Source: Myxococcota bacterium (lineage in GTDB: Bacteria > Myxococcota_A > Polyangia > Polyangiales > Houyiibacteriaceae). From it: 64,000 bases of DNA. A program made the translations under genes and the position numbers. Positions 38,264 to 62,724 of the stretch are shown piece after piece; position 1 is the first letter of the stretch; every line of letters begins with the position of its first letter. The notes under the pieces were generated by a model. The model ran no database searches and was not told the origin of the DNA. It worked only from the letters and a program-made list of their open reading frames with translations. The stretch lies in the NCBI GenBank assembly GCA_039030515.1, contig JBCCEA010000012.1:39546-103545 (forward strand). The letters are read 5' to 3'.

Positions 38264-39484
38264 ATGACTTTGATTCGCATTTATTTATTCGTTTGTTGCG
38301 TCTGGCTAGCCGCCTGCGCCTCTGGGAGTTCAGAAATTGATCCAACCGACTCCGGAGCACCAGGCGACGGGGGAATCTCAAGCGATTCTGGAGACGGCAA
38401 TATCTCTGATCCTTGCGCCAATGTCGTGTGCGAGGGCTTCAGTCAGTGTGTGGCCGGCTCCTGCGTTCCGGATGAACCATGTGCAACCGGCGCAGACTGC
38501 AACGACGGCAATTTATGCCGCAGCGGATTCTGCGTTGCACCTGATCGAGATGTCGATGGTGACGGTTACAATGCCTTCGAAGACTGCGACGAAAACAACT
38601 TCGAAATAAATCCAGGTGCACTTGAGTCTTGCAATGTTGTGGACGAAGACTGTGACGGGCGGATCGACGAAGGAGGTGCGGCGCAGCTTTGTGGTCAGGG
38701 GACCGGTCTCGGCGAGTGCTGCACGGAAGCTTCACAGTCCGATGGATGGGCATGCACGCTTGGAGAATGTGGATGTCCCGAGGGTCGATACGATCTCGAT
38801 TCGACTTTCGACGATGGCTGCGAGTGCCGAGAACTTCCCGAACTAGGTACTGGAGCAGCGTGCACGGACGCCATCAATTTGGGCATCATCACTGAAAGCG
38901 GAACGTCCGGTGAAACCGTCGATCCGACTCTTACCAGCGGAACCATCATCAGCGGCCGCTCCATCTGGTACGAGGTGGAAGCCGTAGATGGGCCCAATGA
39001 GCTGAGTACCGATCGCACTCCGCCTTCGCTCGGTGTGTTTATCTACAACAACGGGTATCACTTTGACGTTCGTTTCGCAGAGAACCCCGGAGACCAATAC
39101 CGATTTAGGGTCCACGCAGAAAGCTGCCTAGACCGCTCACCTGACTCCACGATCGACGAATGTCCGAATCTAGATTCCCTCACTCGGTTCAGTCATCGGG
39201 TTGACCTAAGCGAAGCCGGCAGCGGCCATGCACCCTGCATCTGCTACGACCCAAATCCGGAGGACGGGGAATTCGCTTGCGATGAGCGACCCAATCCAAC
39301 TCCGATTGAACACAACGCAGATCCCAATGTTAACTTGGTTGCCGACGTTCCCCTTTGCGCCACGAATCCTTCGTTTACCACTACGTTCTACATCGAAGTA
39401 ATCCGCAATCCCCAACCGACGAGCGATTTTGTCACCTGCGAGCCATTCGTGCTGGAGGTGAGCAACGGTATCTACGATTCCTAA
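38264..39484 (+). CDS. Cys/Asp-rich lipoprotein with putative metal-binding (MopE-like) repeat
   Basis: Lipobox LAA-C; 'DVDGDGY...DCDENNFEINPGALESCNVVDEDCDGRIDE'. Confidence 0.8.
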   Translation: MTLIRIYLFVCCVWLAACASGSSEIDPTDSGAPGDGGISSDSGDGNISDPCANVVCEGFSQCVAGSCVPDEPCATGADCNDGNLCRSGFCVAPDRDVDGDGYNAFEDCDENNFEINPGALESCNVVDEDCDGRIDEGGAAQLCGQGTGLGECCTEASQSDGWACTLGECGCPEGRYDLDSTFDDGCECRELPELGTGAACTDAINLGIITESGTSGETVDPTLTSGTIISGRSIWYEVEAVDGPNELSTDRTPPSLGVFIYNNGYHFDVRFAENPGDQYRFRVHAESCLDRSPDSTIDECPNLDSLTRFSHRVDLSEAGSGHAPCICYDPNPEDGEFACDERPNPTPIEHNADPNVNLVADVPLCATNPSFTTTFYIEVIRNPQPTSDFVTCEPFVLEVSNGIYDS

Positions 39485-39573: not shown

Positions 39574-41526
39574 TTATTCGCTCAAATTAGATTCAAGTAT
39601 CGGTTCTACACATCCAAAGCCACGCGTTCGGACGTAGCTGATGTGTAAACCGCGGCAGCTGGAATTTTCTACGCAAGAGGTGCATCGCAATGGTTTCGTG
39701 AAGTAGTGGGAGTCGATATAGCGTTTTGTGAAACGAAATATCTCGGGACGTCCATCAGGGCGAAGCATACTTAGGTCGAGAAATTTCGACTCGAGTGTGG
39801 GCGCCTGTCCACCAATGCATCTCGGTATTCCAAATCGTGGGACATCGAGTCGAAACTTGGCGAAAAACTCTGGTAACTCCACGTCGAAGGCCCGAGAGTC
39901 TGTGGATCGCTCCCAAGTCGGCTGCTGAATTGCTAAACGAGTGGCCGTCCGTTCTGGAGCCAACAGCCAAGCTTCAGTTGCCTTCAGCAGTAAAACAACC
40001 ACTTCAAACGACGCGTCTAGCGCGAGCAGTCGCTCGGCTTGCTCGGGGTGGCGAGCGAGTACGCGTGTGAGCCTTTTTCCATCCAGCACTTCCCCCTCGA
40101 GCAGATCCTCAAGGCCTTCATAAGAGCCGAGCTCCAGGGAGACGTTAGCCAGACTGGGAAATCGGCGCATGGCAGATCGTGCATCCATCATGTCTTTGGC
40201 GACCACATGAAGCTGCGTTACCGAGGGGGACTGGGCAAGAGCCTCCGGGGTTTGATAGGAAACGGGACTAGGCTGTCCGGACAAGACACGAAGGCGCCGG
40301 CGACCCTCTTGAGCATCGGACGCGCCGAGGCTCACACTGCTGGTCGAAAGAGCCGAGCCCGCATTGGAGAACAACGCTGCATCAGTGATCGAGACCTCAT
40401 CCTTAGAAACCAAAGCGGTTGCGGGAGGAAATGAACCGACGGCCGCTCGGTATTCCTGCTCGGAGCTCTGACGTCGAGCCCTCCTCTCACTTGCCGGGTC
40501 TCCCCCGAACGCTTGATGATCGGCGACCTCCCAATCTACGTCGACTCGGAGACCTTCAAAGTCAGAGTCTGACAGTCGATTTAAGGTTTGCTCCAACGTG
40601 TCGCAAAGAGGCTCTAGATAGCAATAGCGACAGCGTGCTGGCTGTCTACAGTCTAGAAGTTCGCCAAAGTCAAAGAGTCGGTCGAACTCCTGTCGTCGAC
40701 CGCGTACTTCATCATTGAGCTTGTAGGGGTCCTGAATCAAATCTTCGAAACCCTCGCAATGTGCAGGCGGGAATCGGTTCAGCCAAAGGTGCATGTCCGG
40801 AAGACGTGCATAAGAAAAAGCTCGAAAGAGAGCGTCTTTAGCTTCGTCGAGATCGTAAAAGAGCGTATCCTTACCCTCGCGAAACGCTCTCCCGAAAGGG
40901 ATGATTTGAAGCAAATCGTACTCTCGAACGCCCATCCTCACGAACTTATCTATAATATCGGCGAGATAGCGAACGTTAGCTCGATTCACGACAACATCTA
41001 TATTGACTATGGGGCGTCCGTCTGAGAGCGCATTTTCAAGACCACGCACCTCTTCATCAAAAGCCCCTTTTACCCCGACCAGTGCATCGTGGATCTTCGC
41101 ATTTGGTCCGTGAATAGAGAAAGTGATTTCCGACAAACCTGCATCCAAACACCGACTCAAAAAAGGTCGATATCGGAACATTCTCCCATTGGTAACGGTT
41201 TGTACTTTTTCGTAGCCTGCCAATCGGCCCAAACGCACAAAATCAACGAAGTGCGGATGAATCGTCGGTTCTCCTCCGCTGAGAATCAGTCGCTCCGCAC
41301 CCTTTCGTCGACCATCGAGGATTTGTCGCTTCACATCAGCGACATCACGCATCTCACCGTCATGACTGTCGGAATCCAGGCAGAAAATGCAGCGATCGTT
41401 GCAGGCATAGGTCAGACGCACCCAGTTCCGCTTTTGATGCGCTGCCGCCTCGTGCGCTTCGGCAGTGCTCGGCTTCACGGCCGGATCCTGAGGAGCGTTC
41501 TGCCTTGCCGGGTCGGCTTGTTCCAT
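39574..41526 (-). CDS. Radical SAM protein, HxsC-like, with two Cx2Cx5C modules
   Basis: CNDRCIFC, LSGGEPT, TNG; CRYCYLEPLC and IPRC...CTSCVENSSCRG. Confidence 0.9.
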   Translation of the reverse strand: MEQADPARQNAPQDPAVKPSTAEAHEAAAHQKRNWVRLTYACNDRCIFCLDSDSHDGEMRDVADVKRQILDGRRKGAERLILSGGEPTIHPHFVDFVRLGRLAGYEKVQTVTNGRMFRYRPFLSRCLDAGLSEITFSIHGPNAKIHDALVGVKGAFDEEVRGLENALSDGRPIVNIDVVVNRANVRYLADIIDKFVRMGVREYDLLQIIPFGRAFREGKDTLFYDLDEAKDALFRAFSYARLPDMHLWLNRFPPAHCEGFEDLIQDPYKLNDEVRGRRQEFDRLFDFGELLDCRQPARCRYCYLEPLCDTLEQTLNRLSDSDFEGLRVDVDWEVADHQAFGGDPASERRARRQSSEQEYRAAVGSFPPATALVSKDEVSITDAALFSNAGSALSTSSVSLGASDAQEGRRRLRVLSGQPSPVSYQTPEALAQSPSVTQLHVVAKDMMDARSAMRRFPSLANVSLELGSYEGLEDLLEGEVLDGKRLTRVLARHPEQAERLLALDASFEVVVLLLKATEAWLLAPERTATRLAIQQPTWERSTDSRAFDVELPEFFAKFRLDVPRFGIPRCIGGQAPTLESKFLDLSMLRPDGRPEIFRFTKRYIDSHYFTKPLRCTSCVENSSCRGLHISYVRTRGFGCVEPILESNLSE

Positions 41527-41647: not shown

Positions 41648-43279
41648 CTGCAGCGTAGAAAATACAGACTGTGGACTGTTGGCGTGTCCGCACTAGTGGG
41701 CATGTCGTCGCTGGCGGGATCAGCAAGCTGCAGCGTAGGCGAACGCTCAAGCGTGGAGGTAGAAATCGACGCGCTATCTTCAGCGACGCGGCTCTTTGAG
41801 AGAACGGAGTTTCATGGCGTTTCTGACTCCGAGAGCGAACTGCTGATCTCTCCTGCCTGGACGACGGCCCTAACCGACCGACTCGGTTTCCAGTTCACGA
41901 CAAGAAACAGATTTCCATTCATCCTTGGTAACACGCCCCACAGCCTATCAAACGACAGCCTACCAAACGCCCAGTCGATTTACGTGCGGGCATTTCAAAA
42001 TGGAAGGTTTGGACCATGGCGTGCAGCCAAAACTAAATTCTTCGATGGTCAGCTCGGTGTGGCCAAAATCGACCTGGCCACACCGGCGAAAAGGTTTCAG
42101 TTCGGTCTGCAGCCGGAAACCGACATGGCGTACATCCGGGTCAGCAGCCATCGGCGCACGCACGACCGGAAGGAACCCGAAGAACTGGAGAGGCTGCAGC
42201 TCCCTTTGCGACAAGACCTCATCAACTTGGGCGTTCGTCCGAGAGATTCATGGAACGCCCGCGCCGCTCGATGCGGTACCGAGGATACGCTCAAGTCTCG
42301 AATCACGATCCATCACACGGCAACGCCAACCGCAGACCCCCCAGAGTCGCGCTTGAGGGCCATGCAGGCTTATCATCAGGACGTCTTGCAGTGGTGCGAT
42401 ATCGGCTACCATTTTATGATCTCTCTGGATGGAGTGATCTGGGCAGGGCGTCCAGTAGACGACCTAGGCGCTCACGTTGAGGGCAACAACCTTGAAAACA
42501 TCGGTATCGCTCTGATGGGATGCTTTCAAATTGAAGGTTGCAGCGACTGGACTCCCAATATTCCGAGCAAACCCATGCTGGACGCCGCAGTTGGACTGAT
42601 TCGTCATCTTTCAGAGCACTACGCTTTCGAAGTCACTATCGAGACCCTCTTGGGCCATCGCGATGTGGCTTCCTCCTCAACTGCGTGCCCTGGAGCACAT
42701 CTATATGCGCGACTCGATGAAATACGAGAGCGCTCCAAAAGCGCAACGCTCTCCCCACCGAAAGTGAACCTAAGCCACGTCGTCGATCAGCGACTCGATG
42801 CGGGACGGCGCTCGTTCATCGCCGTGCGCGAAGAACCATCGTCAGCGTTTGGGACCGGCGACGACGAAATTGACGCGCATTCGATTCCGCAGAATGGCGG
42901 CAGAACTGCCTCCTTCGAGCCGACATACCCAGATGGACTGAGTTCATCCGACGCAGGGGCCGTCGGGGGGGCGAAGACATCGAGCTGCTCGGTGACGACG
43001 CGCGCTCCTTTCTCGCTCATCGCGTTCATCATCGCGGCGATATCAGGCGCGACTGGCCGGCGATATCGCTGGAGAATTCCGGAACAAGTTCAGAACAAAC
43101 GCACTGCGATTCGCCGACGTGCAACCACAGCGCTATGCTGCTCGAGTGCCTGCTCCTATGCGTGTCTTGCTCATCCACCCTCCGACCAGCCTCGCACCAG
43201 ATTTCATCGATTATCCGTACTGGAGCGATCTGGGAACCGTGCAACTGGCCGCGTGCATCCGCCAGAGCCCGGAGATTGA
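41648..43279 (+). CDS. N-acetylmuramoyl-L-alanine amidase (Amidase_2/PGRP-like) lipoprotein
   Basis: ITIHHTA, WCDIGYHF, GAHV, NIGI, GHRD...TACPG. Probable CTG start at 41648 after GAGGGG gives a complete signal peptide ending SAS-C. Confidence 0.85.
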   Translation: MQRRKYRLWTVGVSALVGMSSLAGSASCSVGERSSVEVEIDALSSATRLFERTEFHGVSDSESELLISPAWTTALTDRLGFQFTTRNRFPFILGNTPHSLSNDSLPNAQSIYVRAFQNGRFGPWRAAKTKFFDGQLGVAKIDLATPAKRFQFGLQPETDMAYIRVSSHRRTHDRKEPEELERLQLPLRQDLINLGVRPRDSWNARAARCGTEDTLKSRITIHHTATPTADPPESRLRAMQAYHQDVLQWCDIGYHFMISLDGVIWAGRPVDDLGAHVEGNNLENIGIALMGCFQIEGCSDWTPNIPSKPMLDAAVGLIRHLSEHYAFEVTIETLLGHRDVASSSTACPGAHLYARLDEIRERSKSATLSPPKVNLSHVVDQRLDAGRRSFIAVREEPSSAFGTGDDEIDAHSIPQNGGRTASFEPTYPDGLSSSDAGAVGGAKTSSCSVTTRAPFSLIAFIIAAISGATGRRYRWRIPEQVQNKRTAIRRRATTALCCSSACSYACLAHPPSDQPRTRFHRLSVLERSGNRATGRVHPPEPGD

Positions 43280-45467
43280 GTTCACGCTCGTTCATAGTTT
43301 TGATCTCAGAAACTCAAATATTGAACGGCGCGGTGACGGACGCTGGCATCTTGGGGCACCGGTTGAAGAAGTGGTGCGGGCATCTCCAAGCGCTGACGTC
43401 ACCATCATCGCAGTGTCTCCATTTCACCGTCCCCCTGGACGCGACGACACGCTTGGGACGCTTATCGAAGGCTTGAAAAAGAAAACGTCGATGCTGTGGC
43501 TGGTCGATGCGTACCAGTCTGGACAGCACTACATCGAGAGCGATGATCTCCGTAAGGCCTACCCGGAAGCAGATATTTGGATCAAATATGAAGCTGAACG
43601 GACCACGATGAAGCGGCTCACGGAGGTCCTTTCTGGTAAGCGACCTCAGGGCGTTTTTCACGGCGAGCAACCCACCCTCGATATGCTGCCAAATCCGGCT
43701 TGGGATCTGGTGGATCTCGACGCACTCGACAGCTTTCATTCCCGAGTCGATCGAGCACTCGGCCGCTCAAGTTGGGCTTATCCGGTCGGAGGAAGAACGC
43801 TTCCTCTGGTCACCACTCGGGGTTGTCCCTTCCGCTGTGTTCACTGCAGCAGCAACCCCGATAGGCGAGCTGGGGAACCAAAAACGCAAAGGCGATACTC
43901 TAGAGAGCGGCTCTCCCAGTACTTGTCGGAGCTGGTGGAGGTGCACGGGGCGAAGCGATTCGCGATCCTAGACGAACTTATCAATGTGCACCCCCGACAC
44001 TTTGACAGCGTGCTCGAGCTTATCGAATCGCTTGACGTTCGCTTCGATGTGCCGAACGGCTTTAGAGCCGACTATCTGAAACCGAAACACTTCGCACGCA
44101 TGCGTGGCAGAACCTATTTCGCGAGTGTCAGTGCGGAAAGTGCCTCAAAAAGGGTGCTTGAGGACGTGGTGGACAAACAACTCGATCTTCGGGCCATCGA
44201 TCAAGCTGCCGAACATGCCTACCGAGCGGGAGTGCCGCTCATGATCCACTACATCATTGGGCTTCCAGGCGAAACTGGAGCGGAGGTCAATGAGACACTC
44301 AACTATGCCCTAGACTTGTGGGATCGGTTCCGAGCGTATCCCGCAGTTCAATTTGCAACACCTCTACCGGGAACCAGACTCGCTAAGATTCGAATAGCCA
44401 ATAAACTAGAACTCCATCCAGAACGTGATTGGGGGCCTCATTTCCAGAAGAACCCGTTGAGCAGCGATCAGCTGTCCACAGAAACGCTGCACGCTTTTCT
44501 GGACACCTTTCAAAAGCGACTTCGTGAAAGTAGTGGCGCAAAAAAACTGATCATGAATGTGACCTACATGTGCAATAATCATTGTAATTTTTGCGCAGTG
44601 GGCACCCGAACCCAAATCGACGGACATCCTACCCGCCAGAGAGAGTTTCTAGAGCACTACCGCCAAATGGGCGTAGACATGGTGGATTTCGACGGGGGTG
44701 AACCCTCCCTCAACCCTGAACTCGTCCCGCTGATTCGCTATGCAAAGCGGATCGGATACCGACGAATCCACGTTACGACGAATGGTCGTCTTTGCGCATA
44801 CGAGTCCTACGCCCAAAAGCTCGTAGAGTCGGGCATTACAAGCTTACTCTTCAGCGTGCACGGCCATGATCGTCGGACCCATGCACACCATGTGGGCGTA
44901 GCCGAGGCCTTCGATCAGACCTGTGAAGGGATACAAAACTGCGTCTCACTCAGCCCGCCAGAGGTAGATATGGGAATGAATATCACCCTGACAAAACACA
45001 ACTACACAAAAATGCAAGAGGTTGCTGAACTGAGTTGGAAACTCGGTCTTCGATGGCTCAACGTTCAGTTTCTTACTCCATTCGGACGCGCCACAAAGGA
45101 GTTGGCTCCCGATATGGATGGCGCCGCAGCGGAAACCATGAGACTCATCGATGTCTGGCATGAGCGAATGAAGTTGCAGGTCATCAATCTGCCGTTTTGT
45201 TTTATGCCAGGTTATGAGCAGTATGTAGAGGGTGATCTGAGTAAGCTCTCACGGCATATGCTCTTTGTGAACAATGAGTCCGTCAATCTATCGAAGTATC
45301 TGGCGGAACGTCGAACGAAAAAAGATGTCTGTGCGCGCTGTCCACACGCTTGCTTTTGCGGCGGGTTCTACGAGCTTGAAGACGTACCGGAACCTGAATG
45401 GATCGTGACCAAAGATTCTCTATTGAGACGGCCGGACGAAACGGCGATACCTGACCGACAGCGTTAG
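43158..45467 (+). CDS. Double radical SAM fusion: B12-binding-type radical SAM module plus HxsC-like radical SAM module
   Basis: MRVLLIHPP N-terminus and TRGCPFRCVHC; second motif CNNHCNFC, DGGEP, LPFC...CARCPHACFCGG. Confidence 0.88.
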   Translation: MRVLLIHPPTSLAPDFIDYPYWSDLGTVQLAACIRQSPEIEFTLVHSFDLRNSNIERRGDGRWHLGAPVEEVVRASPSADVTIIAVSPFHRPPGRDDTLGTLIEGLKKKTSMLWLVDAYQSGQHYIESDDLRKAYPEADIWIKYEAERTTMKRLTEVLSGKRPQGVFHGEQPTLDMLPNPAWDLVDLDALDSFHSRVDRALGRSSWAYPVGGRTLPLVTTRGCPFRCVHCSSNPDRRAGEPKTQRRYSRERLSQYLSELVEVHGAKRFAILDELINVHPRHFDSVLELIESLDVRFDVPNGFRADYLKPKHFARMRGRTYFASVSAESASKRVLEDVVDKQLDLRAIDQAAEHAYRAGVPLMIHYIIGLPGETGAEVNETLNYALDLWDRFRAYPAVQFATPLPGTRLAKIRIANKLELHPERDWGPHFQKNPLSSDQLSTETLHAFLDTFQKRLRESSGAKKLIMNVTYMCNNHCNFCAVGTRTQIDGHPTRQREFLEHYRQMGVDMVDFDGGEPSLNPELVPLIRYAKRIGYRRIHVTTNGRLCAYESYAQKLVESGITSLLFSVHGHDRRTHAHHVGVAEAFDQTCEGIQNCVSLSPPEVDMGMNITLTKHNYTKMQEVAELSWKLGLRWLNVQFLTPFGRATKELAPDMDGAAAETMRLIDVWHERMKLQVINLPFCFMPGYEQYVEGDLSKLSRHMLFVNNESVNLSKYLAERRTKKDVCARCPHACFCGGFYELEDVPEPEWIVTKDSLLRRPDETAIPDRQR

Positions 45468-45531: not shown

Positions 45532-46482
45532 CTACGGGACCGGCAGCACTTGGAGCCGGCGAGCGCCAACCGATGGCGATTCACCTTTAGCCGAGGCGAT
45601 TTCTACATCCCCGAATACATCCAAATAATCACGACGCATCCCGGGACAGCGCCTGCGATCATCACATTCCTCACACACTTGGGTGTGTGTATTTGGAGTC
45701 AACTTGGCGTCGCTTAGATCGAACATGCCATCAGGCGAAAGCACCCGTACCCCCTCCTCGGCGGGATTTAGGTGAATATGCTGCAAGGACGGCCCCAATA
45801 GGCAAATAGGCAGGTGAAGTGAACGAATCTTGATTTCGGGCACCTGCTTCAGTGCTGTCTCGACAAAGGGAATGACGTCGATCATTTTAGGCAAAGATTC
45901 TAGGTTGTGCCGGTTTCCGTCGGTTAGGGAGACAAACCAAAGCCAGGCCTCTCGCATGCCGAAGGAGTGAATCCAGGCGAGTGCTTCGGGCAGATGTCGA
46001 TAAGTATCTTCTTTAAGAATCACTTCTGCAACGCACTCTAGTCGAGTCGATGCACACGAAGCTTTCATCTGAACTAGATTTTCTAGAGCTTGGACCAGTA
46101 GGGGAAACGTGCCTTCGCGTCGAACCAACCGCTCGTACTCCGTAGGTCGGTGCGTGTGAATCGAAACGTGAAATCGAGTCACGCCAGCCTCGACCAGGCG
46201 CGCCACATTCGCAGCCTCCGCAAGCAATAGCCCGTTAGTTTGCAGCTTGATGTCGCAGAAACCGAGCTTTCTTGCTTCCCGAATCAGCGGTAGTAGATCG
46301 GACCGTATCGAGGGCTCGCCACCGGTCAGGGCCACCCGCTCGTAGCCTTCACGTCTGGCCTGCCTCATCGCATGGACCACCTGACGCGCGGTGAGGGCTC
46401 GCTCGCGCATCTCTTTTGTAATCGTGCAGTAATCGCACCAGAGATTGCAATCGTATCCCAAGACGATATCAAGCAGAGACAT
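45532..46482 (-). CDS. Radical SAM protein, HxsC-like
   Basis: CNLWCDYC, LTGGEP, QTNG, LPIC...CEECDDRRRCPG; start at MSLLDIV. Confidence 0.9.
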   Translation of the reverse strand: MSLLDIVLGYDCNLWCDYCTITKEMRERALTARQVVHAMRQARREGYERVALTGGEPSIRSDLLPLIREARKLGFCDIKLQTNGLLLAEAANVARLVEAGVTRFHVSIHTHRPTEYERLVRREGTFPLLVQALENLVQMKASCASTRLECVAEVILKEDTYRHLPEALAWIHSFGMREAWLWFVSLTDGNRHNLESLPKMIDVIPFVETALKQVPEIKIRSLHLPICLLGPSLQHIHLNPAEEGVRVLSPDGMFDLSDAKLTPNTHTQVCEECDDRRRCPGMRRDYLDVFGDVEIASAKGESPSVGARRLQVLPVP

Positions 46483-46549
46483 TGCGTGCTCGCGCCTTTC
46501 GGTTCGACAGAGGTACGTTCGACCCTCTATACGAAGATTGCTGCATAGT

Positions 46550-47623
46550 GTGAAAGAAACGCCCTCCAACGTCCATACTCCTATCCGTCTGACGTATCAC
46601 TGTACCCAGGCCTGTATGTTCTGCGGCATTAGTGAAAAAAAATCAGAGGAATCGAGTCAGCCAAAGGGCTTGATGGAGCAACTCGCCGAACTTCGTCAAC
46701 ATACAGATGTGGTGACGCTCTCCGGAGGCGAGCCAACTTTGTCGCCATATCTGCTCGAATGCGTGCGCGAGGCATATCGACTCGATTTTCGCCGGATCGC
46801 GATCCAATCGAATGGCTCATTTGAAAACGCGGAAGAGCCATGTTCTGATCAAAATGACGTTCAAAGGGCAAAGCTCATCGCCCTTCGCGACGCAGGGATG
46901 ACCGAAGTACAGGTTTCGATTCACTCGATGAACACAGACTGCCAGGCCTACCTCACTGGACGAAAACAGAGCTCTGACTATGCTTTTCATCTGCTTTCTA
47001 CCGCACGTCGCTTGGCGATACCTGCATCTGTAAACACCGTAATCACTCGTTCCAACTATCGTGAGCTCGCCCTCTTACCGGCTCCCCTGGCAGGAGCTGA
47101 AGTGAAGGCATGGCATCTCGTTTGGCCTCAGGTCATTGGGCGAGCTCGCATCAATTTTGCTCGAATTGTACCTACGCTCTCGATTGCCGTTCCGTACATG
47201 CTTCACGCTGTTGCCAAGGCAGAGTCCAGAAGTCTGAAAGCGTCGATCACGGGCGTTCCGCATTGCCTTCTCGGCCCGTATGTCCGCATCGCGACAGAGG
47301 CCGCAGCTGGCCCCACTCGCTTTGCAACGAAATGCAGCCGGTGTTCTCTTCGGAGCCGCTGCAGCGGTCTTGACCCTCGCTACATGGCCCGTTTTGGCGA
47401 TGGAGAACTGCGACCTCAACGTCTACCGCCTTCAGACAACGCGTTCGAGTCGACAAGTTCGGAGAAGCAGATGGGTACGATGAGCACCCCCCCAACAGGA
47501 TGGGGTGCTCTGTTCGAGTTAGAGCCCTCCGAAACAGATCCGAACGCTGAAGAAAAAGGGCGCGAGGTACGACTAGCTCTGCCTGTCGTCCGCGAAGTGA
47601 GTCCGAAAGAAAAAAAAGACTAG
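46550..47623 (+). CDS. Radical SAM protein, HxsC-like
   Basis: CTQACMFC, LSGGEPT, QSNG, VPHC...CSRCSLRSRCSG; GTG start inferred. Confidence 0.85.
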   Translation: MKETPSNVHTPIRLTYHCTQACMFCGISEKKSEESSQPKGLMEQLAELRQHTDVVTLSGGEPTLSPYLLECVREAYRLDFRRIAIQSNGSFENAEEPCSDQNDVQRAKLIALRDAGMTEVQVSIHSMNTDCQAYLTGRKQSSDYAFHLLSTARRLAIPASVNTVITRSNYRELALLPAPLAGAEVKAWHLVWPQVIGRARINFARIVPTLSIAVPYMLHAVAKAESRSLKASITGVPHCLLGPYVRIATEAAAGPTRFATKCSRCSLRSRCSGLDPRYMARFGDGELRPQRLPPSDNAFESTSSEKQMGTMSTPPTGWGALFELEPSETDPNAEEKGREVRLALPVVREVSPKEKKD

Positions 47624-47974: not shown

Positions 47975-49162
47975 ATGGACCGTACGTTTCTGCACCACCT
48001 ACGTAGCGAAACCCAAGACCTTCGAGACTCAGGCCTCTTCAAGGACGAACGAGTCATCGAGTCGCCACAGCAGTCAGCGATCCGAGTACAGGGCGGGCAG
48101 GAAGTACTCAATTTCTGCGCAAACAACTACCTCGGGTTGTCCAATCACCCCGCCCTGATCGAAAGCGCAAAAAGAGCGCTCGACGAGTTCGGATTTGGCA
48201 TGAGCTCAGTACGGTTCATCTGCGGGACTCAAAGCGTGCATAAAGAGCTCGAGGCGCGGATCAGCCGATTCCTCGGCACTGAAGATACGATTCTCTACTC
48301 TTCTTGCTTCGACGCCAATGGGGGGCTTTTCGAAACGCTGCTGGGCCGGGAAGACGCCGTGATCAGTGATGCGCTCAACCACGCATCGATCATCGACGGT
48401 ATTCGGCTTTGCAAGGCGCAGCGCTACCGATTCGAAAGCAGCAACATGGTCGATCTGCGGTCCAAATTGGAGGAAGCCAAAGGCGCTCGAGTGAAGCTCA
48501 TCGCGACAGACGGGGTGTTTTCCATGGACGGCGTTCTCGCCGACCTCAAATCGATTTGCGACCTAGCAAGCGAGTATGGTGCCCTGGTTATGGTGGATGA
48601 CAGCCATGCGGTTGGTTTTATGGGAGAAGACGGGCGCGGCACACACGAGTACTGCGCGGTGATGGATCGGGTCGACATCATCACTGGAACCCTCGGCAAA
48701 GCACTCGGTGGGGCTTCGGGAGGTTACACCAGCGGACGCCATGAGGTGATCGAATGGCTCCGACAGCGGTCGCGGCCCTACTTATTCAGCAACACCTTGG
48801 CGCCCGTGATCGCAAAGACCTCGATTACGGCTCTTGACCTAATCGAGGGAGACTCCTGCCTGCGCGACCGGTTGAAAGTCAACGCTGCTCATTTCCGCAG
48901 CGGCATGGAAGCCGCCGGGTTTCAACTCTCGGGGGCCGACCACCCGATCATTCCAGTCATGCTCGGCGATGCGAAGGTTGCAGCGCGTATGGCTTCTGCA
49001 TTGCTTGAAATGGGAATTTACGTGACAGGTTTCAGCTATCCCGTCGTGCCCAAAGGCCAGGCGCGCATCCGAGTACAAATATCGGCGGCTCACGAATCGG
49101 CTCAAATCACCCGAGCTATCGACGCCTTTACCAATATCGGTAGACAGATGGGTGTGCTTTGA
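47975..49162 (+). CDS. kbl: Glycine C-acetyltransferase (2-amino-3-ketobutyrate CoA ligase)
   Basis: [43 protein letters not shown]. Confidence 0.97.
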
Positions 49163-50211
49163 TGAAAGCCCTAGTCAAGAGTCATCCCCGTGAGGGCATT
49201 TGGCTTTCGGAAGAAGAGGTTCCAAGCCCAGGACCGAACGATTTACTCATCCGCATAAGAAAAACAGCGATTTGCGGAACGGACATCCACATCTTCAACT
49301 GGGATGACTGGGCTCAAAAAACCATTCCAGTCCCTATGATCACGGGCCATGAGTTCGTGGGAGATGTCGTCGCTGTCGGAAGCCATGTTCAAGGTTTTGA
49401 GGTGGGCCAAAGGGTCTCTGGCGAAGGTCACGTTACTTGCGGGTACTGTCGCAACTGTCGCGCAGGACGCCGTCATCTATGCAGAAACACGGTAGGGATC
49501 GGAGTGAATCGCACGGGAGCCTTTGCGGAGTATCTGTGCCTGCCAGCCGTCAATGCGTTTAAGATCCCCCCGAGCATTCCCGATTCCATCGCTTCCATCC
49601 TGGACCCATTGGGCAATGCAACCCACGCAGCGCTTTCGTTCGATCTCGTTGGGGAGGACGTGCTCATCACTGGCGCCGGGCCCATCGGTTTGATGGCCGT
49701 GGCCATCTGCAGACATGTGGGAGCCCGAAACGTCGTGATCACCGACATCAATCCGTATCGACTTGAGTTGGCCACAAAAATGGGCGCCACGATGGCCATC
49801 GACGTACGCCATGAATCGATAGCCGACGCTCAGGCATCCATCGGGATGAGCGAGGGCTTCGACGTCGGATTGGAGATGAGCGGCAATCCCCATGGGCTCC
49901 GGGATACCCTCGACAATCTAAACCATGGCGGGAGACTGGCGATACTGGGCATTCCTCCGTCTGAAACTACGATCGACTGGAATCAGGTCGTGTTCAAAGG
50001 ACTCACCTTGAAAGGGATCTACGGTCGGGAAATGTTTGAGACCTGGTATAAGATGCTGAGTATGCTTCAGAGCGGACTCGACATCTCACCGATACTCACC
50101 CATGAGCTACCGATCTCTGATTACGCAGACGGCTTTCACATTATGAAATCCGGCCTTTGCGGTAAGGTCGTCCTGAATTGGACTGAGGAACATCAACCAG
50201 AAGAACTCTGA
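49162..50211 (+). CDS. tdh: L-threonine 3-dehydrogenase
   Basis: ICGTD, GHE, CGYCRNC...C zinc site, [22 protein letters not shown] coupling to kbl. Confidence 0.97.
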
Positions 50212-50238: not shown

Positions 50239-51216
50239 TCAAACCGGTACCGGAACAAACTCCTCCCAGCCGTGTCGGCTCAGGTAGTTACTCCACACTC
50301 CTTCACAGACTGAATCATATTTGCACTCGGCACATTCCGCCCTCTTTTTTCTCAGAGCATCATCGAGATCGCTGCGTCTTAATTGAACAAGATCGCTATC
50401 GGGACCGCATTGACTTTGGGGGTCTATCTCGGTCAGAAGCGCTATGTCGTGCCCTCCAGAGACAGACTCAAAATGGGTATAGCTCTCGACGAACCCACGG
50501 TTGAAATCAGGCAAACCCTCCGTAGTACAAAGCGGAATATCGACAAAAAACGCCATCGCATCGGGGAAAGCGTTGAGGAATACAGCTGCTTCTTTTGCGA
50601 TCTCAGTATAGCGTGGGAAGATTTTTTCAAAATGCGTATTGGCGCGACCATTGGCCTGCATCACGTTGAACACCACCTGATCCACTCCCAAGTCGCGCAA
50701 GAAGACGTAGATCGAGGCTAAATGCGGCAAGTTGCGCTTGGTCACTACGGTGCTGGTATGCAGCTGTAGTCCAAAACGTTTTAGCGAGGCGATGTTGCGT
50801 ATTCCATTCGTCGTCTGTTCGAACGCACCTGGAGTTCGGACAAGGCTGTCGTGAAGCCGCGACTCATGACCATGAATGCTGACGTAAAATCGATTGATGC
50901 CGGACTTAACCAGCATTTGCGCGTAACGCCGTTGACTGAGCATTCGGGCGTTTGTCATCACGCTGATATTGGCTATGCCTGCTCCCTTAGCCCAGCTGGC
51001 CCATACGGGCAGCCTCCGATTCAGCGTCGGCTCTCCACTGGTAAAGCAGATTTCTTCTGCGCCCGCCTTATTCTCGAGGATCCAACGCACCGTCGAGTCG
51101 TCGGTCTGAGAATTCGTTTCGTATCGGGCGTCTCTATCCTCCTCCATACAGAACAGGCAGTTGTTGTTGCACACGGCTCCGGTCAGTACGTGAACTCGCT
51201 CCTGCCGCGACTTCAT
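50239..51216 (-). CDS. hxsC: His-Xaa-Ser system radical SAM protein, HxsC-like
   Basis: CNNNCLFC, TSGEPT, IPLC...CAECKYDSVCEG; directly downstream of the HxS peptide gene. Confidence 0.8.
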   Translation of the reverse strand: MKSRQERVHVLTGAVCNNNCLFCMEEDRDARYETNSQTDDSTVRWILENKAGAEEICFTSGEPTLNRRLPVWASWAKGAGIANISVMTNARMLSQRRYAQMLVKSGINRFYVSIHGHESRLHDSLVRTPGAFEQTTNGIRNIASLKRFGLQLHTSTVVTKRNLPHLASIYVFLRDLGVDQVVFNVMQANGRANTHFEKIFPRYTEIAKEAAVFLNAFPDAMAFFVDIPLCTTEGLPDFNRGFVESYTHFESVSGGHDIALLTEIDPQSQCGPDSDLVQLRRSDLDDALRKKRAECAECKYDSVCEGVWSNYLSRHGWEEFVPVPV

Positions 51217-51297: not shown

Positions 51298-51618
51298 CTA
51301 CCAGCTTCCATGACTACCGTGGGAACCGTGGCTGCCGTGGGAACCGTGGCTACCGTGGGAACCGTGGCTGCCGTGGGAACCGTGGCTGCCGTGGGAACCG
51401 TGGCTGCCGTGGGAACCGTGGCTGCCGTGGGAACCGTGGCTGCAGTGCTGGGCGCCCCTTTGAGCATCGAAAGGAGCAAGTCCTCCATGTTCGTCTGCAT
51501 TGGCCAGGGCCCGGTCAGAGATTTCCTGCTGATCAGGACTCAAAGAAACTCCAGCACCCTTTTGAAAGGTCGGTAGCTCTTCTTCTTCGGTCGATTTCTC
51601 TTTCTCAGCCATAGGCAT
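51298..51618 (-). CDS. hxsA: His-Xaa-Ser repeat precursor peptide: acidic leader then HC(SHG)15SW
   Basis: 16 consecutive H-x-S triads; lies between HxsB and HxsC-like radical SAM genes. Confidence 0.9.
   Translation of the reverse strand: MPMAEKEKSTEEEELPTFQKGAGVSLSPDQQEISDRALANADEHGGLAPFDAQRGAQHCSHGSHGSHGSHGSHGSHGSHGSHGSHGSHGSHGSHGSHGSHGSHGSW
51307..51441 (-). repeat. Coding tandem repeat, 9-bp period with 18-bp higher-order unit
   Basis: AGC CAC GGT TCC CAC GGC units; 135 nt = 15 SHG. Confidence 0.95.
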
Positions 51619-51773: not shown

Positions 51774-53282
51774 CTACGAGGAGCTCGGATTCGTCTCAGC
51801 AGGATGAAGAAAATGGTCGCGAGATCGATTGGTCGTCCATCGCTCCAATACAGCCAGGGTCTCGGCATCAGAGTCACCTAGCTTCTCAAATAGGTAGTCC
51901 TGAATCCCCTTATGTACCTGGCAGAGCGTGCTCTCTCGCATCCGTCCAAACAACGTCCCTTGAGTCTTGTAGCTATGAACGGGAGGTATGCCGCAGTAAG
52001 GAACGTAGACGCAGTTGACGCAATCCGGCTGCCCTTCCAACTGCGAGGCGATGACCACCGCGCGCACCGTCTCGTGACCTACGACTTCCCGATAAGAGGA
52101 GGTCGAAACATTACCGAGAGCAAACGTATCGTCTCCGCTGTGGTGCAGCATGCGCCCTTCGTCACAAGTAAAGATTCGACCGTCGTAGTTGTAAGCGAGT
52201 TGCCCTATTCCCGCGCCCGACGGGCTGCGGATATCCAAAAAGTTGGGATCTTCACCCGACAAGATCTTGGTCAGGAAGATCGCGGCATAGCGCTCGAGGA
52301 TCTCCACTCCTTGCAGATTCAACTCGATCATGTAGTCGACCGCAGAGCGATAAAACTCGAGATACTCAGACCTTGGGTATTCGAATAGATGGGCGGTTCG
52401 AGATGCCCAGCCGAAGGGATCGAGAGGTCTCAAAAAGAGAGCCCTACATCCCAAGTCGACGTACGTATCGACCAAATCTTTCCAGCGGCTCAGTAGAGGT
52501 CGCGTGGTCGTGACCAGCGCCTCCACATGGTACAGTGTGGGATCGAGGTTTAGTTCCGAGTACTTCTCGTTGATACGCCTGATCCAGCCAGATGCTACTT
52601 CGTGAGAGGAACCGCCCGCAAGCTTCCGCTGCTTGTCATGGATATCCTGCGGCCCGTCGATACTCGTGCAGATTTGTACTCGATGTTCGAGCAGCCAAGA
52701 CAGCTTCTCTTCGGTCATCAATGCGAGATTGCTGACCATTGTGAACTCAAGCTCTTTACCGAGACGGCGACTCTTATCTAGAGCGTAGTGCACCACGTGC
52801 TTGAGGACCTCCCAGTTGACGAGAGGTTCGCCGCCCTGAAACTCGATGGTCACGTAGGGATTGGTGGTCTGCAGCAGGAAATCCACGGTTTTTTCTGCAA
52901 CCTCAGCCGTCATATCGGTCTGTACCGCATCCATATTTGCCCTTGAGGCGTGGCAATAGGCGCAAGTTTCGTTGCAGCGCAGAGTAAGAACTAGAACGTG
53001 AAGGTTTGGTCCGGAATGAATAAATCTCTTGCGCCGACGAATAGACGCCGCCGCCGCCGGTACGTCAACATGGTCACGCAGAAAATTCTTGGCCCGGAGC
53101 CGCTCAAAAAGCGAGCTGCCTTCTTCCAACTCTCCTCGAGTAAAGGCCTCGAACTCGTCGGATTCGAGCAGAATCCAGCCTCCGTCGATTCCGGTCAGCA
53201 GCACGCGTTCCCCGATTTGCCGAAAACGGAAAAACGCAGCGTGCTTTGTGGTGGCGCCGCTCGGCAAGCGTGGACTAGTCAC
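51774..53282 (-). CDS. hxsB: His-Xaa-Ser system radical SAM/SPASM maturase HxsB
   Basis: CNETCAYC, IEFQGGEP, 'DIRSPSGAGIGQLAYNYDG.IFTCDEGRM', CVNCVYVPYCG. Confidence 0.9.
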   Translation of the reverse strand: MTSPRLPSGATTKHAAFFRFRQIGERVLLTGIDGGWILLESDEFEAFTRGELEEGSSLFERLRAKNFLRDHVDVPAAAASIRRRKRFIHSGPNLHVLVLTLRCNETCAYCHASRANMDAVQTDMTAEVAEKTVDFLLQTTNPYVTIEFQGGEPLVNWEVLKHVVHYALDKSRRLGKELEFTMVSNLALMTEEKLSWLLEHRVQICTSIDGPQDIHDKQRKLAGGSSHEVASGWIRRINEKYSELNLDPTLYHVEALVTTTRPLLSRWKDLVDTYVDLGCRALFLRPLDPFGWASRTAHLFEYPRSEYLEFYRSAVDYMIELNLQGVEILERYAAIFLTKILSGEDPNFLDIRSPSGAGIGQLAYNYDGRIFTCDEGRMLHHSGDDTFALGNVSTSSYREVVGHETVRAVVIASQLEGQPDCVNCVYVPYCGIPPVHSYKTQGTLFGRMRESTLCQVHKGIQDYLFEKLGDSDAETLAVLERWTTNRSRDHFLHPAETNPSSS

Positions 53283-53563
53283 CGCAGGCCCTCGGAGTCT
53301 GACGCGTTCAGTTCATCGGACATCCCCCGGCTTCGGGCTCGAATGGTCAATCCCAGGGCAAAATTGGAGACCTCTCCAGCAACGCGTCGTTCCTTTTTGG
53401 AAGGAGGCCCATCTTCGTCTCCATCTTGCTCGAAGAGACACACCTCCCAGTAATCAGGAGACTCCTTGCGGGTAGTCGCGACGTAGGGTGCGTACACCTG
53501 GAGCGCCTCGTCTACGCACGCGCCGGGATAGAGATCGCGACGAAAACGAATTCGTACGCTCAC
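53279..53563 (-). CDS. HxsD-like small protein
   Basis: GTGA overlaps with both neighbours; 'FRRDLY...VDEALQVY...AGEVSNFAL' parallels the adjacent HxsD pattern. Confidence 0.7.
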   Translation of the reverse strand: MSVRIRFRRDLYPGACVDEALQVYAPYVATTRKESPDYWEVCLFEQDGDEDGPPSKKERRVAGEVSNFALGLTIRARSRGMSDELNASDSEGLR

Positions 53564-54054
53564 GACGGTTCTTCCTTTGATTTCTTGGCGTACTTCTCTT
53601 CCCAACTCATCGCGATCCCGAGAGGGTCTTCGAAAGGCTCTTCCGAAAAGTCAAAGTCTTCAAGTTCGTCGAGTGTCGGTGGGCCCATCGCGCCAGCGAT
53701 CGCCTGCATGGTAATCGATTCAAGCGTAGCTCGATTTTCCTCGGTAATCCGAAGTCTGAAGGCACAGGCCATCAACTCGTTGGCAAACTCTCCGACGAGA
53801 GATCGTAGGGCGTTCAGTTCGGGCGCGGACGCCGCATTCTTCAGCGTCAGATGGACCCGCACGCTCGTTTCCTTTGGGCGGTCCAGAAATACAAACGCTC
53901 GGTCGATAAAAGTAAAGGAAGCTCCAAATATCGCATCGAGCGGGAAGAGCTCGGTTTGGATCTCCAATGCGATCCCCTGCGCGCCGTGAAGCTCTTGAAG
54001 CTGGACTAGACCAGCGGGCAAACCGCCGACCGCCTGAGACGCATGTGCACTCAC
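53560..54054 (-). CDS. hxsD: His-Xaa-Ser system protein HxsD
   Basis: 'ELFPLDAIFGASFTFIDRAFVFLD...GEFANELM..AFRLRI.EENRA' plus position upstream of hxsB. Confidence 0.8.
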   Translation of the reverse strand: MSAHASQAVGGLPAGLVQLQELHGAQGIALEIQTELFPLDAIFGASFTFIDRAFVFLDRPKETSVRVHLTLKNAASAPELNALRSLVGEFANELMACAFRLRITEENRATLESITMQAIAGAMGPPTLDELEDFDFSEEPFEDPLGIAMSWEEKYAKKSKEEPS

Positions 54055-54100: not shown

Positions 54101-55939
54101 CTACGACAGCTTCGAGGCCATCTTCTGCTCACCTCGCCGGCGGTACCACAGCATCCATTGGTTGCTGCCAAGGAGATTCACCGGCGACTCCTCGACGAGT
54201 TCGAACTGTGGGTGTCGGGCGAGCAGTGCCTTCACCTCGGCCGCACCGTCGTTGCGGAAATGCTCCAAACCTGCGGCACTAGATTCCGCTCTATCGGTTT
54301 GAGATCGGCTTCGCGCCAGTCCGAAGGCGACATTGTCTACGATCGCAAGCGAACCACCGTCGCGTAAACAATGCGCACAGGCGGCAATGACAAAGGCGGG
54401 ATCTTGAAGGTGATTCCAGCTTCTCAAAATGAGGATATGGTCAAAGGGTTGAGAGGATGTTTCTCGTTGCCGAAACCATGCTTCAGCAGTGCCCGCAACG
54501 AGATGGGCCCACGGCCAGGCCTTCCTTTGGCGCTCCACCAAGTCTTCGTCCGGATCGATTCCGGTATAGCAAAGCTGTGCAGCGGCGGCCGAGGCACCAA
54601 ACGCCTCCGCGTAGCGACCCTCTCCGAATCCTAAATCGAGCACGTCGCCGCGAAGCGTTCGGATTCGACGGGCCACGTCTTCATCTGATGGCCCAAACAC
54701 GTCAACGGCCCGCGGAACCCATAGCCCAGAGCACTCTGTCTGATGGACGCAACCTTCACAGCGCGGAGATCGATCGAGCTTTCGAAGGTCTGCCGCAAAA
54801 TCATCGACCGCCGCCTTACGAGAAACGTCGAGGTATACTTGGCCTCTTTGTAGCTTCGTTCGTTCGATCTCCGCATCGCTGAAGTCACGCGTATCCGCTC
54901 GAAAGAGCGCAACGCGCCCCCGATGTTCGACGAGCAAGTCGCGTCCACGATCCCAGGGCGAAATCCCAAGCGCTCCGTCGCGCAGCGGGCAGTCGACCTC
55001 ACCCCATTCGGCGAATCGCTGAAAGCGGTAGTTAAACGAATTGCTCCGGGGGCGCTCGAGACTCGGCACGAGACGCTCTCCGCCGGCGCGAAGCTCGATG
55101 TATCCGCGATACAACCCGGGACAACCACCCTGATGGACGCAGCCCTCACACTGGGGGAGATGGGCCTTATTGCGATCGTCTACCGGAAAAAAATCCGATT
55201 CGCCTACCTCTACCATGCTCCGGAAGCCGTGGGTCTTTAGGTCGTCGTAGCGGTCTTCAAGCCCCTTGAGATGACAAAGCGGAAACGCGCCGTGAACCAA
55301 CCGGCCCTCCGAATCGTATTTCGATTCACCGTACTCGATCGCATCGCGCACGCGCGCTGCGGCATCGAAGACATCGGGAGTGAGTGCACGAAACAGAAGT
55401 TCTCCACCACCCTTTGGCTCTACCATCGAAAACTTCAAACGGATGCGCTCATAGGGCATCACCAAATCCACCAACTCGCGAAGGTGATCGACATTCTGCC
55501 GAGTCACCACACAGTTGACCGTCACGTCGATAGGCCGACCGGCGAGTACCGAAAGTGCACCACAGGACTGCTCAAACGCATCAGCCCGAACCAGGCGATT
55601 GTGTACCCGCGCCGATCCCCCGTGTAGTGAGAGATAAACATACTTGAGGCCCAAAGACTGCAATCGATCGACCACTTCTGGGTAGCTCAACAGTCGACCA
55701 TTCGTGATCAATCCAAAATCCATCTTCAGCGCGGCAACCTCAGCGGCCCAGTGCATCAGTTCAGATCGGATGGTCGGCTCCCCTCCTGAAAGCACCACCA
55801 TCGTATGACCAAGCTCTTTGGCCCTACGAATCTTCCGCGACACTTCAGCTGCCTCCGCATCGATGGAGCGCAGCTCGAGCGTGTGACAGAACGTGCAGTG
55901 CTCGTTGCATCCGTAACCGACTTTGATCATGGCTTTCAT
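54101..55939 (-). CDS. HxsC-like radical SAM fused to a class I SAM-dependent methyltransferase
   Basis: CNEHCTFC, LSGGEPT, FPLC, two CEGCVHQ..C.G motifs; C-terminal VLDLGFGEG...YTGID...WNHL. Start could also be 55948 or 55957. Confidence 0.88.
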   Translation of the reverse strand: MKAMIKVGYGCNEHCTFCHTLELRSIDAEAAEVSRKIRRAKELGHTMVVLSGGEPTIRSELMHWAAEVAALKMDFGLITNGRLLSYPEVVDRLQSLGLKYVYLSLHGGSARVHNRLVRADAFEQSCGALSVLAGRPIDVTVNCVVTRQNVDHLRELVDLVMPYERIRLKFSMVEPKGGGELLFRALTPDVFDAAARVRDAIEYGESKYDSEGRLVHGAFPLCHLKGLEDRYDDLKTHGFRSMVEVGESDFFPVDDRNKAHLPQCEGCVHQGGCPGLYRGYIELRAGGERLVPSLERPRSNSFNYRFQRFAEWGEVDCPLRDGALGISPWDRGRDLLVEHRGRVALFRADTRDFSDAEIERTKLQRGQVYLDVSRKAAVDDFAADLRKLDRSPRCEGCVHQTECSGLWVPRAVDVFGPSDEDVARRIRTLRGDVLDLGFGEGRYAEAFGASAAAAQLCYTGIDPDEDLVERQRKAWPWAHLVAGTAEAWFRQRETSSQPFDHILILRSWNHLQDPAFVIAACAHCLRDGGSLAIVDNVAFGLARSRSQTDRAESSAAGLEHFRNDGAAEVKALLARHPQFELVEESPVNLLGSNQWMLWYRRRGEQKMASKLS

Positions 55940-56630
55940 CAATGCCATCCACTCCAAAGCATCCGATGCGTTCGAACTCGAACTCAGACGACCACAGTCT
56001 ACCGCCGTTCAGACCCTACGTTGTCACTGACGCTAGGCCGGCTGAGTCGGCCAAGAGACTCGATGTGTGCTGCTTGAATAAGATACAGGGTGACGCACGC
56101 CTGCTCGATCGTCGAACCGCTTCTCGCGCACACTGCGACAATTTGATCGAAAAGAAGTTAAAGATTTCAGCAAACGCGCCGGAAAAAGCGATCAAAAAAC
56201 GGCTTCGGTCCGTCGCGAGGCGCGTTCATGCGTTCGCCAAGCGAAAGGGCGCCCTTTTTGTCGAGAACCGTTCGAGCGTATCGGCGCAACCCGTGATAGG
56301 TACGTGGCAATACGCGACATTTTGAGTCCGCAATAGGCGATCTACCTCGGCCTACTCAAGGAGGAGCGTGAGACCACAACCAGCGGTCTAGGAAACGACG
56401 CTTTTGAGTATTTGTTCGAAAAGATTAGACGCTTCCCGTGTCGATTCCCAAGCCGTCGCGCCTCAGATGCCTGTATCCGCTAGTGGATCTGGGTATGAAT
56501 CTAAGTTGCCTTGTCAACCGAGCGGAGCTCGCCAAATCGGCCGACTTCCGCAAACCCCTCGTTTCCCGCCGCGGCTCTTTTTGCGGTCACAGCCTCTCGG
56601 CTCCAAGTCAGACACTGAGGGAGGCCTACG

Positions 56631-62500: not shown

Positions 62501-62724
62501 GTGAGGCAGCCAATTCTTGGTTCAGTTGGCCGCAGCTTGCGGCGCGCTCGAGTCGCGCGTTCTTGACCGACTCGAACGTGCTTCACGTCGTCACCGCAGA
62601 AGGAAGCACACCGACGGTAGAGGCACACGAGATGCCGGGCTGGAGTTGTCAGTCACTTCAAGCAACTGACGATCGAGCATTCTGTGCGATGGGCCAAAGC
62701 GGAGTGCTTGCAATCGATCTGTAA
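59595..62724 (+). pseudogene. Secreted beta-propeller lipoprotein, frameshifted by a 118-bp tandem duplication (possibly an assembly artefact)
   Basis: Lipobox VSA-C; 'EADII', 'MDEFDGYFRV', 'VRFDG.RAY.ITF..TDPLF.IDL', 'GELEIPG'. Removing one copy fuses ORFs 59595..61292 and 60988..62724 into 1003 aa. Confidence 0.8.
61170..61405 (+). repeat. Exact 118-bp tandem duplication
   Basis: 61170..61287 matches 61288..61405 (tttgacctcgcgg...gattggtgga). Confidence 0.95.

Follow-up and report, generated by a model that had tools for sequence, protein, structure and literature searches.

A conserved His-Gly-Ser repeat peptide of the HxsA4 family and the set of radical-SAM genes that accompanies it in Myxococcota

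The window analysed here, a stretch of 64,000 nucleotides from a Myxococcota genome, carries on its minus strand a gene for a peptide of 106 amino acids (51298..51618), which matches the model of HxsA4 precursors (NCBIfam NF038313) over residues 14-106, with 88.4 bits against a cut-off of 55. A preliminary description of this DNA had seen in it an acidic leader of 57 residues ending in RGAQ, one His-Cys-Ser triad, 15 His-Gly-Ser triads and a final Trp, and translation bears out each of these. On the minus strand, the leader occupies 51448..51618, the first triad (HCS) 51439..51447, the HGS triads 51304..51438, and the terminal Trp codon with its TAG stop 51298..51303. Translation starts at either Met1 or Met3, and the leader has 57 or 55 residues accordingly; it holds 12 Asp or Glu against five Lys or Arg. 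The core of 49 residues consists of 16 consecutive HxS triads, with 16 His, one at every third position, a single Cys, and no Lys or Arg at all. It is the sole run of three or more HxS triads in the six frames of the whole window.

In an alignment of 39 precursors, the leader follows the pattern LP(S/T)F...L...A...Q, where P16 and L26 are invariant and F18, A41 and Q57 are conserved in at least 90%. Of the leader motifs put forward earlier for comparison among homologs, conservation is seen for LP(S/T)F and QHC and not for QKG. By hydropathy scan, as distinct from a signal-peptide predictor, the leader has no hydrophobic signal segment (the best 11-residue value is 0.19), and its first 40 residues contain no twin-Arg. 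The protein stops at the Trp after the repeats, with no peptidoglycan-binding domain; its sole Pfam match is collagen-like, and collagen-like matches were set aside as compositional (Gly at every third residue) and far under the NCBIfam cut-offs. A scan for promoters and terminators at the locus gave nothing beyond chance. What looked like a second copy of the gene elsewhere in the same genome (C5:4-153) is a repeat of EGSAAS, unrelated to hxsA4, where a contig ends.

At the DNA level, Tandem Repeats Finder reports a tandem repeat at 51317..51447 with a period of 18 bp, 7.3 copies and 97% matches; its longest stretch free of mismatches measures 91 bp (51353-51443). The Ser codon alternates between TCC and AGC from triad to triad, as had been described, and this two-triad periodicity is stronger than when the order of the triads is randomised (p=0.001, 1000 shuffles). 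Synonymous changes are found in one internal unit and in the last two triads. The earlier statement that only the last units diverge is right about those two triads, but triad 11 also has a variant Gly codon, and a perfect unit follows it. Two open reading frames overlap the gene, one of 241 residues on the plus strand and one of 69 residues on the minus strand, and both were rejected as the real gene, since only the HxS frame is conserved across genomes. A TVG-like reading of the array on the plus strand likewise lacks conservation, and we put its resemblance to TvgA down to chance.

Four public sequencing runs from a single study of a marine metagenome cover the region in the form of contigs, none of which has a piece spanning the array. 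Depth across the array was estimated from two of them, X1 and X2, the other two (X3 and X4) being too shallow. X1 is a possible source of this DNA; two of its repeat pieces reach depths of 44.8 and 72.9 against about 20 for single-copy sequence, and an assembly with 16 triads predicts 3.0- and 4.7-fold depth for these pieces. Read simulation for this run (150-bp reads, equal prior weights) puts a weight of 0.86 on 16 triads, with 0.06 on 14 and 0.07 on 18; as no contig piece crosses the array, this is support for 16 triads and not proof. Run X2 has several single-base differences from the window, and its first repeat piece has a depth of 60 against 6.5-11.6 for single-copy sequence, which 16 triads rarely give (P about 0.004 or less). 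The ratio of its two pieces, about 1.3 when back-calculated from bin means, fits about 20 triads, a hint only, because the array of another organism is also present in X2 and could add depth. Overall, contig depth favours 16 triads in the gene of the window. Among homologues with a short leader in a protein collection, 18 of 19 have just 3-5 triads against a median of 14 in genomes, and these are probably collapsed arrays. Collapse is possible as well in the three shortest arrays from genomes, since these are uniform and their assemblies fragmented. Triad counts taken from short-read assemblies of such arrays are unreliable and probably biased low.

The precursor gene sits between two genes for radical SAM enzymes, and the reading of its product as a precursor-type peptide beside its maturases is supported. 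On the same strand, hxsC4 (50239..51216) lies 81 bp downstream of it and matches NF038332 at 561.6 bits (cut-off 500), and hxsB (51774..53282), of the radical SAM/SPASM type, lies 155 bp upstream and matches TIGR03978 at 543.6 bits (cut-off 370). Further upstream, and also on the minus strand, are genes for a small HxsD-like protein (53279..53605; NF038315 at 50.2 bits, cut-off 41), for a divergent HxsD (53560..54054), and for a fusion of an HxsC-like radical SAM enzyme with a class I methyltransferase (54101..55957; Pfam Radical_SAM and Methyltransf), which is the first gene of what appears to be an operon. Thus the four models of the NCBIfam type-4 set (NF038313, NF038332, NF038315 and TIGR03978) are all above their curated cut-offs here, in one apparent operon. 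The classical models stay under theirs: HxsC (TIGR03977) reaches 95.7 bits of the required 267.9, and the divergent HxsD reaches 39.6 bits of the 50 of TIGR03976. This divergent HxsD is a neighbour of the precursor in 11 of the 15 clusters that were compared.

Four more radical-SAM genes are found in the window, all at lower coordinates. Two encode HxsC-like radical SAM enzymes (46445..47623, plus strand, a neighbour in 13 of 15 clusters, and 45532..46569, minus strand). A third gene (43119..45467, plus strand) encodes a double radical SAM protein with two CxxxCxxC motifs and an HxsC-like C-terminal half, and the fourth (39574..41526, minus strand) an HxsC-like enzyme with a second, degenerate half. 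The window has seven radical-SAM genes with eight CxxxCxxC motifs between them, and all but hxsB and hxsC4 fail to reach any NCBIfam cut-off. Three unlinked genes for HxsC-like radical SAM proteins are on other contigs of the genome (L081, G000:C8:44009-45871; L082, G000:C33:24696-26345; L083, G000:C47:7016-8314); they hold four CxxxCxxC motifs in total, one of them having two. The set in this genome therefore comprises ten radical-SAM genes over four contigs, with 12 such motifs.

We surveyed 61 genomes, comprising this one and others from the same family and order, and took 27 of them as carriers of HxsA4: 23 with a match above the cut-off and four in which shorter precursors were read directly, weak matches elsewhere being mostly unread. 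HxsB is found in all 27 carriers and in one other genome. The nine remaining radical-SAM genes have not a single match among the 34 genomes without HxsA4; among the carriers, they are found in 20 of 27 (hxsC4), 24 (methyltransferase fusion), 22 (double radical SAM protein), 23 (enzyme with the degenerate half), 18 (45532..46569), 9 (46445..47623, at E<=1e-35), 13 (L081), 21 (L082) and 26 (L083). Thresholds are not the same for all queries and many of the genomes are incomplete; five weak matches, all in HxsA4 genomes, were excluded; moreover, the counts overstate the association, because the relatives are not independent. A gene for a METTL9-like (DREV) histidine methyltransferase (G000:C59:3401-4171), which is typical for the clade and was considered as a part of the system and rejected, served as the control: it occurs in 37 of 61 genomes, namely in 24 of 27 with HxsA4 and in 13 of 34 others. 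Relatives of the three unlinked genes are located inside the cluster in other genomes, for example beside hxsA4 in G045. Gene order is shuffled between HxsA4 genomes, and the accessory genes stay near hxsA4. In three carriers of HxsA4 that belong to a single genus (G010, G029 and G035), most of the accessory enzymes are missing at the thresholds used. In the only genome with HxsB and without HxsA4, all of them are missing; next to its HxsB (L075, G051:C96) is a HxS protein of the classical type, with a hydrophobic N-terminus, the repeat segment HRSHSSHRSHSS and an extra C-terminal domain.

Structure prediction adds some detail on two of these enzymes. The model of HxsB (pLDDT 90.8) has three strands and then three helices, at residues 19-84, ahead of the barrel, and its best fold match is 5WGG, a thioether-forming peptide maturase (E 1.3e-21 over 484 columns), followed by anSME, TigE, ChlB and SuiB. 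The predicted layout is RRE-radical SAM-SPASM, with an N-terminal domain of RRE type. The N-terminal half of the double radical SAM protein (model pLDDT 85.0) matches AprD4, MgmA, CysS, TokK and TsrM with E from 6e-15 to 8e-12, and is predicted to fold like the cobalamin-type radical SAM enzymes; as its top match is a dehydratase, methyl transfer is a candidate role only. Solved relatives of HxsC4 are just distant radical-SAM enzymes. Neither HxsB nor HxsC4 belongs to the cyclophane-forming families, as they score 41-59 bits against the models of YhhB, AmcB and GrrM/OscB, which have cut-offs of 310-445.

One more gene is a conserved neighbour of HxsA4 clusters. It encodes a Cys-rich protein, a likely lipoprotein (38264..39484, plus strand), with the motif PF11617, which is short and common in surface proteins of Myxococcota. 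ORF clustering over 15 neighbourhoods places relatives of this protein in 10 of the 14 other clusters, and in a set of genomes picked by us they occur in 8 of 10 with HxsA4 and in 0 of 10 others. A search of the ESM Atlas with its C-terminal part returned no named family. The NCBIfam type-4 models leave out this lipoprotein and the eight radical-SAM genes, besides hxsB and hxsC4, that track HxsA4. Among the ORF groups common to at least three of the 15 clusters there is no conserved protease or exporter, and among the conserved neighbours no metal transporter or metal regulator. A defence-island context was not found either, the single PADLOC match among 36 proteins being a DprA-family protein, and the surroundings of the locus look like housekeeping DNA.

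Several other features of the surroundings can be recorded. At 32980-33720 (plus strand), a protein of 246 residues has a twin-arginine-like motif and a weak match to Pfam TAT_signal; its relatives are near the cluster in six of the 14 other neighbourhoods by single-linkage, and in three by direct match. A gene for N-acetylmuramoyl-L-alanine amidase and a kbl-tdh pair (41684-43279 and 47975-50211, both plus strand) sit between the radical-SAM genes, and ORF clustering does not place them among the conserved neighbours. A perfect direct duplication of 118 bp lies at 61170-61405, where a beta-propeller gene is split between two ORFs (59595-61292 and 60988-62724) that overlap and differ in frame; this is either a recent frame-shifting duplication or an assembly artefact.

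The long repeat is an ordinary feature of its family. The 27 genomes yield 33 HxsA4 precursors, the one in the window included, with 5-18 triads and a median of 14; 24 of them have 13-18 triads and eight have at least 16. The core starts with HCS in 31 of the 33 and ends with Trp in all, so that the single Cys and the terminal Trp, which had been singled out as core features, are indeed conserved. Triads other than the first are HGS in 393 of 398 cases, and are encoded by 41 different 9-mers with both classes of Ser codon. A two-triad period of 18 bp, made of their own codons, is seen in 9 of the 28 other arrays that are long enough for this analysis (p<=0.01; four short ones were left out), and a three-triad period in two. 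These figures do not support the view that the array is special; since the repeat is ordinary for the HxsA4 family, the array itself is no surprise. Its five other frames vary from genome to genome, which points to selection on the HxS frame. The near-constancy of HGS in spite of so many 9-mers, together with separate 18-bp periods elsewhere, argues that the long pure core is old and conserved, and the DNA appears to have been homogenised repeatedly through slippage in multiples of nine bases. A recent 18-bp expansion, as proposed earlier, is thus half right: homogenisation of the DNA is recent, but the long peptide is not.

The expectation that repeat number varies is borne out between genomes and also within one, where paralogues have 13 and 18 or 13 and 16 triads; the difference between paralogues, at least, is real. 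Two arrays from one genus with a common 18-bp unit have 6 and 14 triads, exactly four units apart, though collapse may have shortened the smallest arrays. There is no preference for even triad counts, as would be expected of an 18-bp functional unit; 13 and 14 triads occur seven times each. Tandem paralogues of hxsA4 with unequal counts are present in three genomes (L010, 13/18; L011, 13/18; L014, 16/13). Two unlinked copies (L072 and L073) start with HGS and have no Cys, and in one relative the array is split over two frames by a frameshift (L024:9817-9970), due to sequencing error or slippage. Many of the wider HxsA4 homologues (P0002-P0119) have a FLxSEEG-type leader motif and a hydrophobic segment; the latter is found in 95 of 119, whereas the myxobacterial HxsA4 is without it, and this suggests that the homologues with hydrophobic leaders make up a subfamily of their own, exported and separate from the myxobacterial one.

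The closest named relatives of the locus are in Myxococcota, many of them in Polyangiaceae and kin, so that the host is probably a myxobacterium, and at the peptide level there is no difference between the window peptide and its relatives in this phylum in leader pattern, HCS start, HGS run or terminal Trp. HxsA4 is the sole Hxs precursor model that the peptide matches at E<=0.001; classical HxsA is not matched. Judged by sequence, then, the peptide is a new, well-conserved member of a catalogued and apparently unstudied family. A literature search that reached few subscription journals found no paper on HxsA4, HxsC4, HxsA2, HxsA3 or NF038313, and none on radical SAM enzymes of Myxococcota with HGS or HxS repeats.

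The closest studied system is HXS of E. coli. The HXS family was reportedly first noted by Haft and Basu in 2011. In the one experimental study that our search found, Li et al. 2026 (PMC13128918), which has no mention of Myxococcota, HxsA-D of E. coli is an anti-phage system that blocks entry of phage DNA; HxsB, HxsC and HxsD are necessary for cleavage and export of HxsA, a change of +8 Da (+C-4H) in HxsA maps to its SHRSS motif, and replacement of any HxS repeat abolishes defence. The same text describes HxS chemistry by HxsB and HxsC as unsettled, in part because recombinant HxsA is insoluble. The locus described here shares with that system the HxS repeats, an HxsB above the cut-off, proteins related to HxsC and HxsD, and the position of hxsD before hxsB. 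Classical HxsA, according to the same paper (PMC13128918), is a protein of 214 residues in which a signal peptide is combined with five basic HxS repeats and with a domain that binds peptidoglycan, and it is encoded in a four-gene cassette found to 99.7% in Pseudomonadota. Here, in contrast, a peptide of 106 residues ends with its repeats, the 16 triads are neutral, the precursor gene is between hxsB and hxsC4, and ten radical-SAM genes are shared across genera.

Other peptide pathways are more distant. Triceptides (HaaB, YhhB, ScaB, MscB) likewise have an aromatic residue at every third position, and their i,i+2 cross-links made by radical-SAM enzymes, from His to Cbeta and from Phe to the Cbeta of Ser, are documented (PMC11002830); the maturases of the present locus, however, are outside those enzyme families, and the part of that paper available to us contains no His-to-Ser link. 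The poly-cyclopropylglycine precursor TvgA and its enzyme TvgB (PMC9062424) resemble the present case in that a leader precedes a near-homopolymeric core on which a radical-SAM enzyme acts one repeat after another, but differ in the TVGG repeat, in the single radical-SAM enzyme, and in the dedicated peptidase and transporters of the cluster. With leader-dependent radical-SAM RiPPs in general the locus shares a maturase, HxsB, with a predicted RRE-type domain. On the membership tests, the peptide is HxsA4 and fails those of classical HxsA, and HxsB and HxsC4 fail those of the triceptide maturases.

We propose, with a probability of about one half, that HxsA4 is modified by the co-encoded radical-SAM enzymes and loses its leader, and that the product goes to the envelope, where a barrier of the HXS kind would be its most plausible role. 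Confidence falls from step to step. The peptide is very probably a substrate of the co-encoded radical-SAM enzymes, and the RRE-type domain predicted in HxsB is probably where its leader docks. Somewhat less confidently, and with the balance just in favour, the side chains of His and Ser in the triads would be altered, by i,i+2 cross-links, by a one-carbon, hydrogen-losing change of the type seen in E. coli HxsA, or by both; homology to E. coli HXS makes maturation on His and Ser most likely. By calculation, +C-4H equals one methyl plus three losses of two hydrogens, and the HxsA4 system would encode candidate methyl donors, its cobalamin-type and methyltransferase domains being the candidate sources of the carbon. 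The single Cys and the terminal Trp might receive separate one-off changes, for which we see slightly less than an even chance. After modification the leader would be removed, with the product likely at the cell envelope; a role in envelope defence, with the conserved lipoprotein in place of the wall-binding domain of classical HxsA, is the most tentative step. The 18-bp repeat would be a by-product: the array is renewed through slippage by multiples of nine bases, and selection holds HGS.

In favour of this proposal, HxsA4, HxsB, HxsC4 and the HxsD-like protein all exceed their family cut-offs. Against the barrier role stand the missing signal segment, wall-binding domain and basic residues, as well as the housekeeping surroundings. 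Against the proposal as a whole stand the scores of HxsC and HxsD under the classical cut-offs, the lack of a protease or exporter among the conserved neighbours, a ten-enzyme set unlike the compact four-gene HXS cassette, and a literature search in which no HxsA4 locus turned up with evidence from biochemistry or expression. It is also hard to explain what ten enzymes would do on a near-homopolymer, and some may have other substrates.

This last point leads to the alternative that survives best, although it is still unlikely, namely that action on HxsA4 is limited to HxsB, HxsC4 and the HxsD proteins, and that the other radical-SAM genes and the lipoprotein are a separate linked pathway or serve other substrates. 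The three genomes without most accessory enzymes would fit this, as would the shuffled gene order, and classical HXS works with two enzymes (PMC13128918). Yet none of the nine accessory genes turned up in the 34 genomes without HxsA4, most of the enzymes are HxsC-like, and the genes remain near hxsA4 after rearrangement.

We consider it improbable that the matured peptide is a poly-His polymer that binds Cu, Ni or Zn and serves to store these metals, detoxify them or take them up, with the enzymes making it rigid and repeat number setting its capacity. Such a polymer would account for the 16 His and one Cys among 49 residues, for the variable number of triads and for a conserved neighbour with what Pfam calls a putative metal-binding motif (PF11617); that motif, however, is short and widespread in surface proteins of Myxococcota, and the conserved neighbours in the 15 clusters include no transporter or regulator of metals. 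To our knowledge, His-rich tracts bind metal without needing an invariant Ser and Gly. Copper-binding ribosomal peptides with cross-linked His are reported to exist (PMC10206099), but in HXS His itself is implicated in the covalent change (PMC13128918).

Cross-linking triad by triad, as in a cassette-type precursor, followed either by cutting into short identical cyclic units or by secretion of the whole as an antimicrobial or signal, would let repeat number set yield and not length. The exact period of three residues equals the aromatic-x-x spacing of three-residue cyclophanes (PMC11002830), precursors with repeat cores modified unit by unit are known from TvgA (PMC9062424), and the predicted fold of HxsB resembles RiPP maturases. 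Nevertheless, there is neither a spacer nor a cleavage motif between the triads, no conserved peptidase or transporter adjoins the 15 clusters, and HxsB and HxsC4 are far under the cut-offs of the cyclophane families, which leaves this reading with a poor chance.

That the array is mis-assembled, or that another frame is the real gene, is very improbable: the array is unspanned, uniform arrays collapse easily, as the short-leader homologues illustrate, and two other ORFs overlap, but simulated depth puts most weight on 16 triads, the leader is part of the match to the HxsA4 model, and the five other frames vary across genomes, one of them often with stops.

A more ambitious form of our proposal, doubtful as it stands, is that an assembly line of ten radical-SAM genes makes a densely cross-linked, methylated envelope peptide from an HGS polymer of variable length, that this peptide is displayed together with the Cys-rich lipoprotein, and that slippage of the 18-bp unit tunes its length between strains. 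If true, this would rank with the most enzyme-rich of the known radical-SAM peptide pathways and would offer a direct route to HxS chemistry. HxsA4 is short, acidic and probably soluble, and its 16 uniform triads would make it a simpler substrate, in which the mass shift per triad could be read directly. The co-occurrence counts can serve as a parts list for reconstitution, including the three enzymes encoded on other contigs and the lipoprotein. The value of the locus lies in the system around the repeat, and it is the ten-enzyme set together with the lipoprotein that merits experiment.
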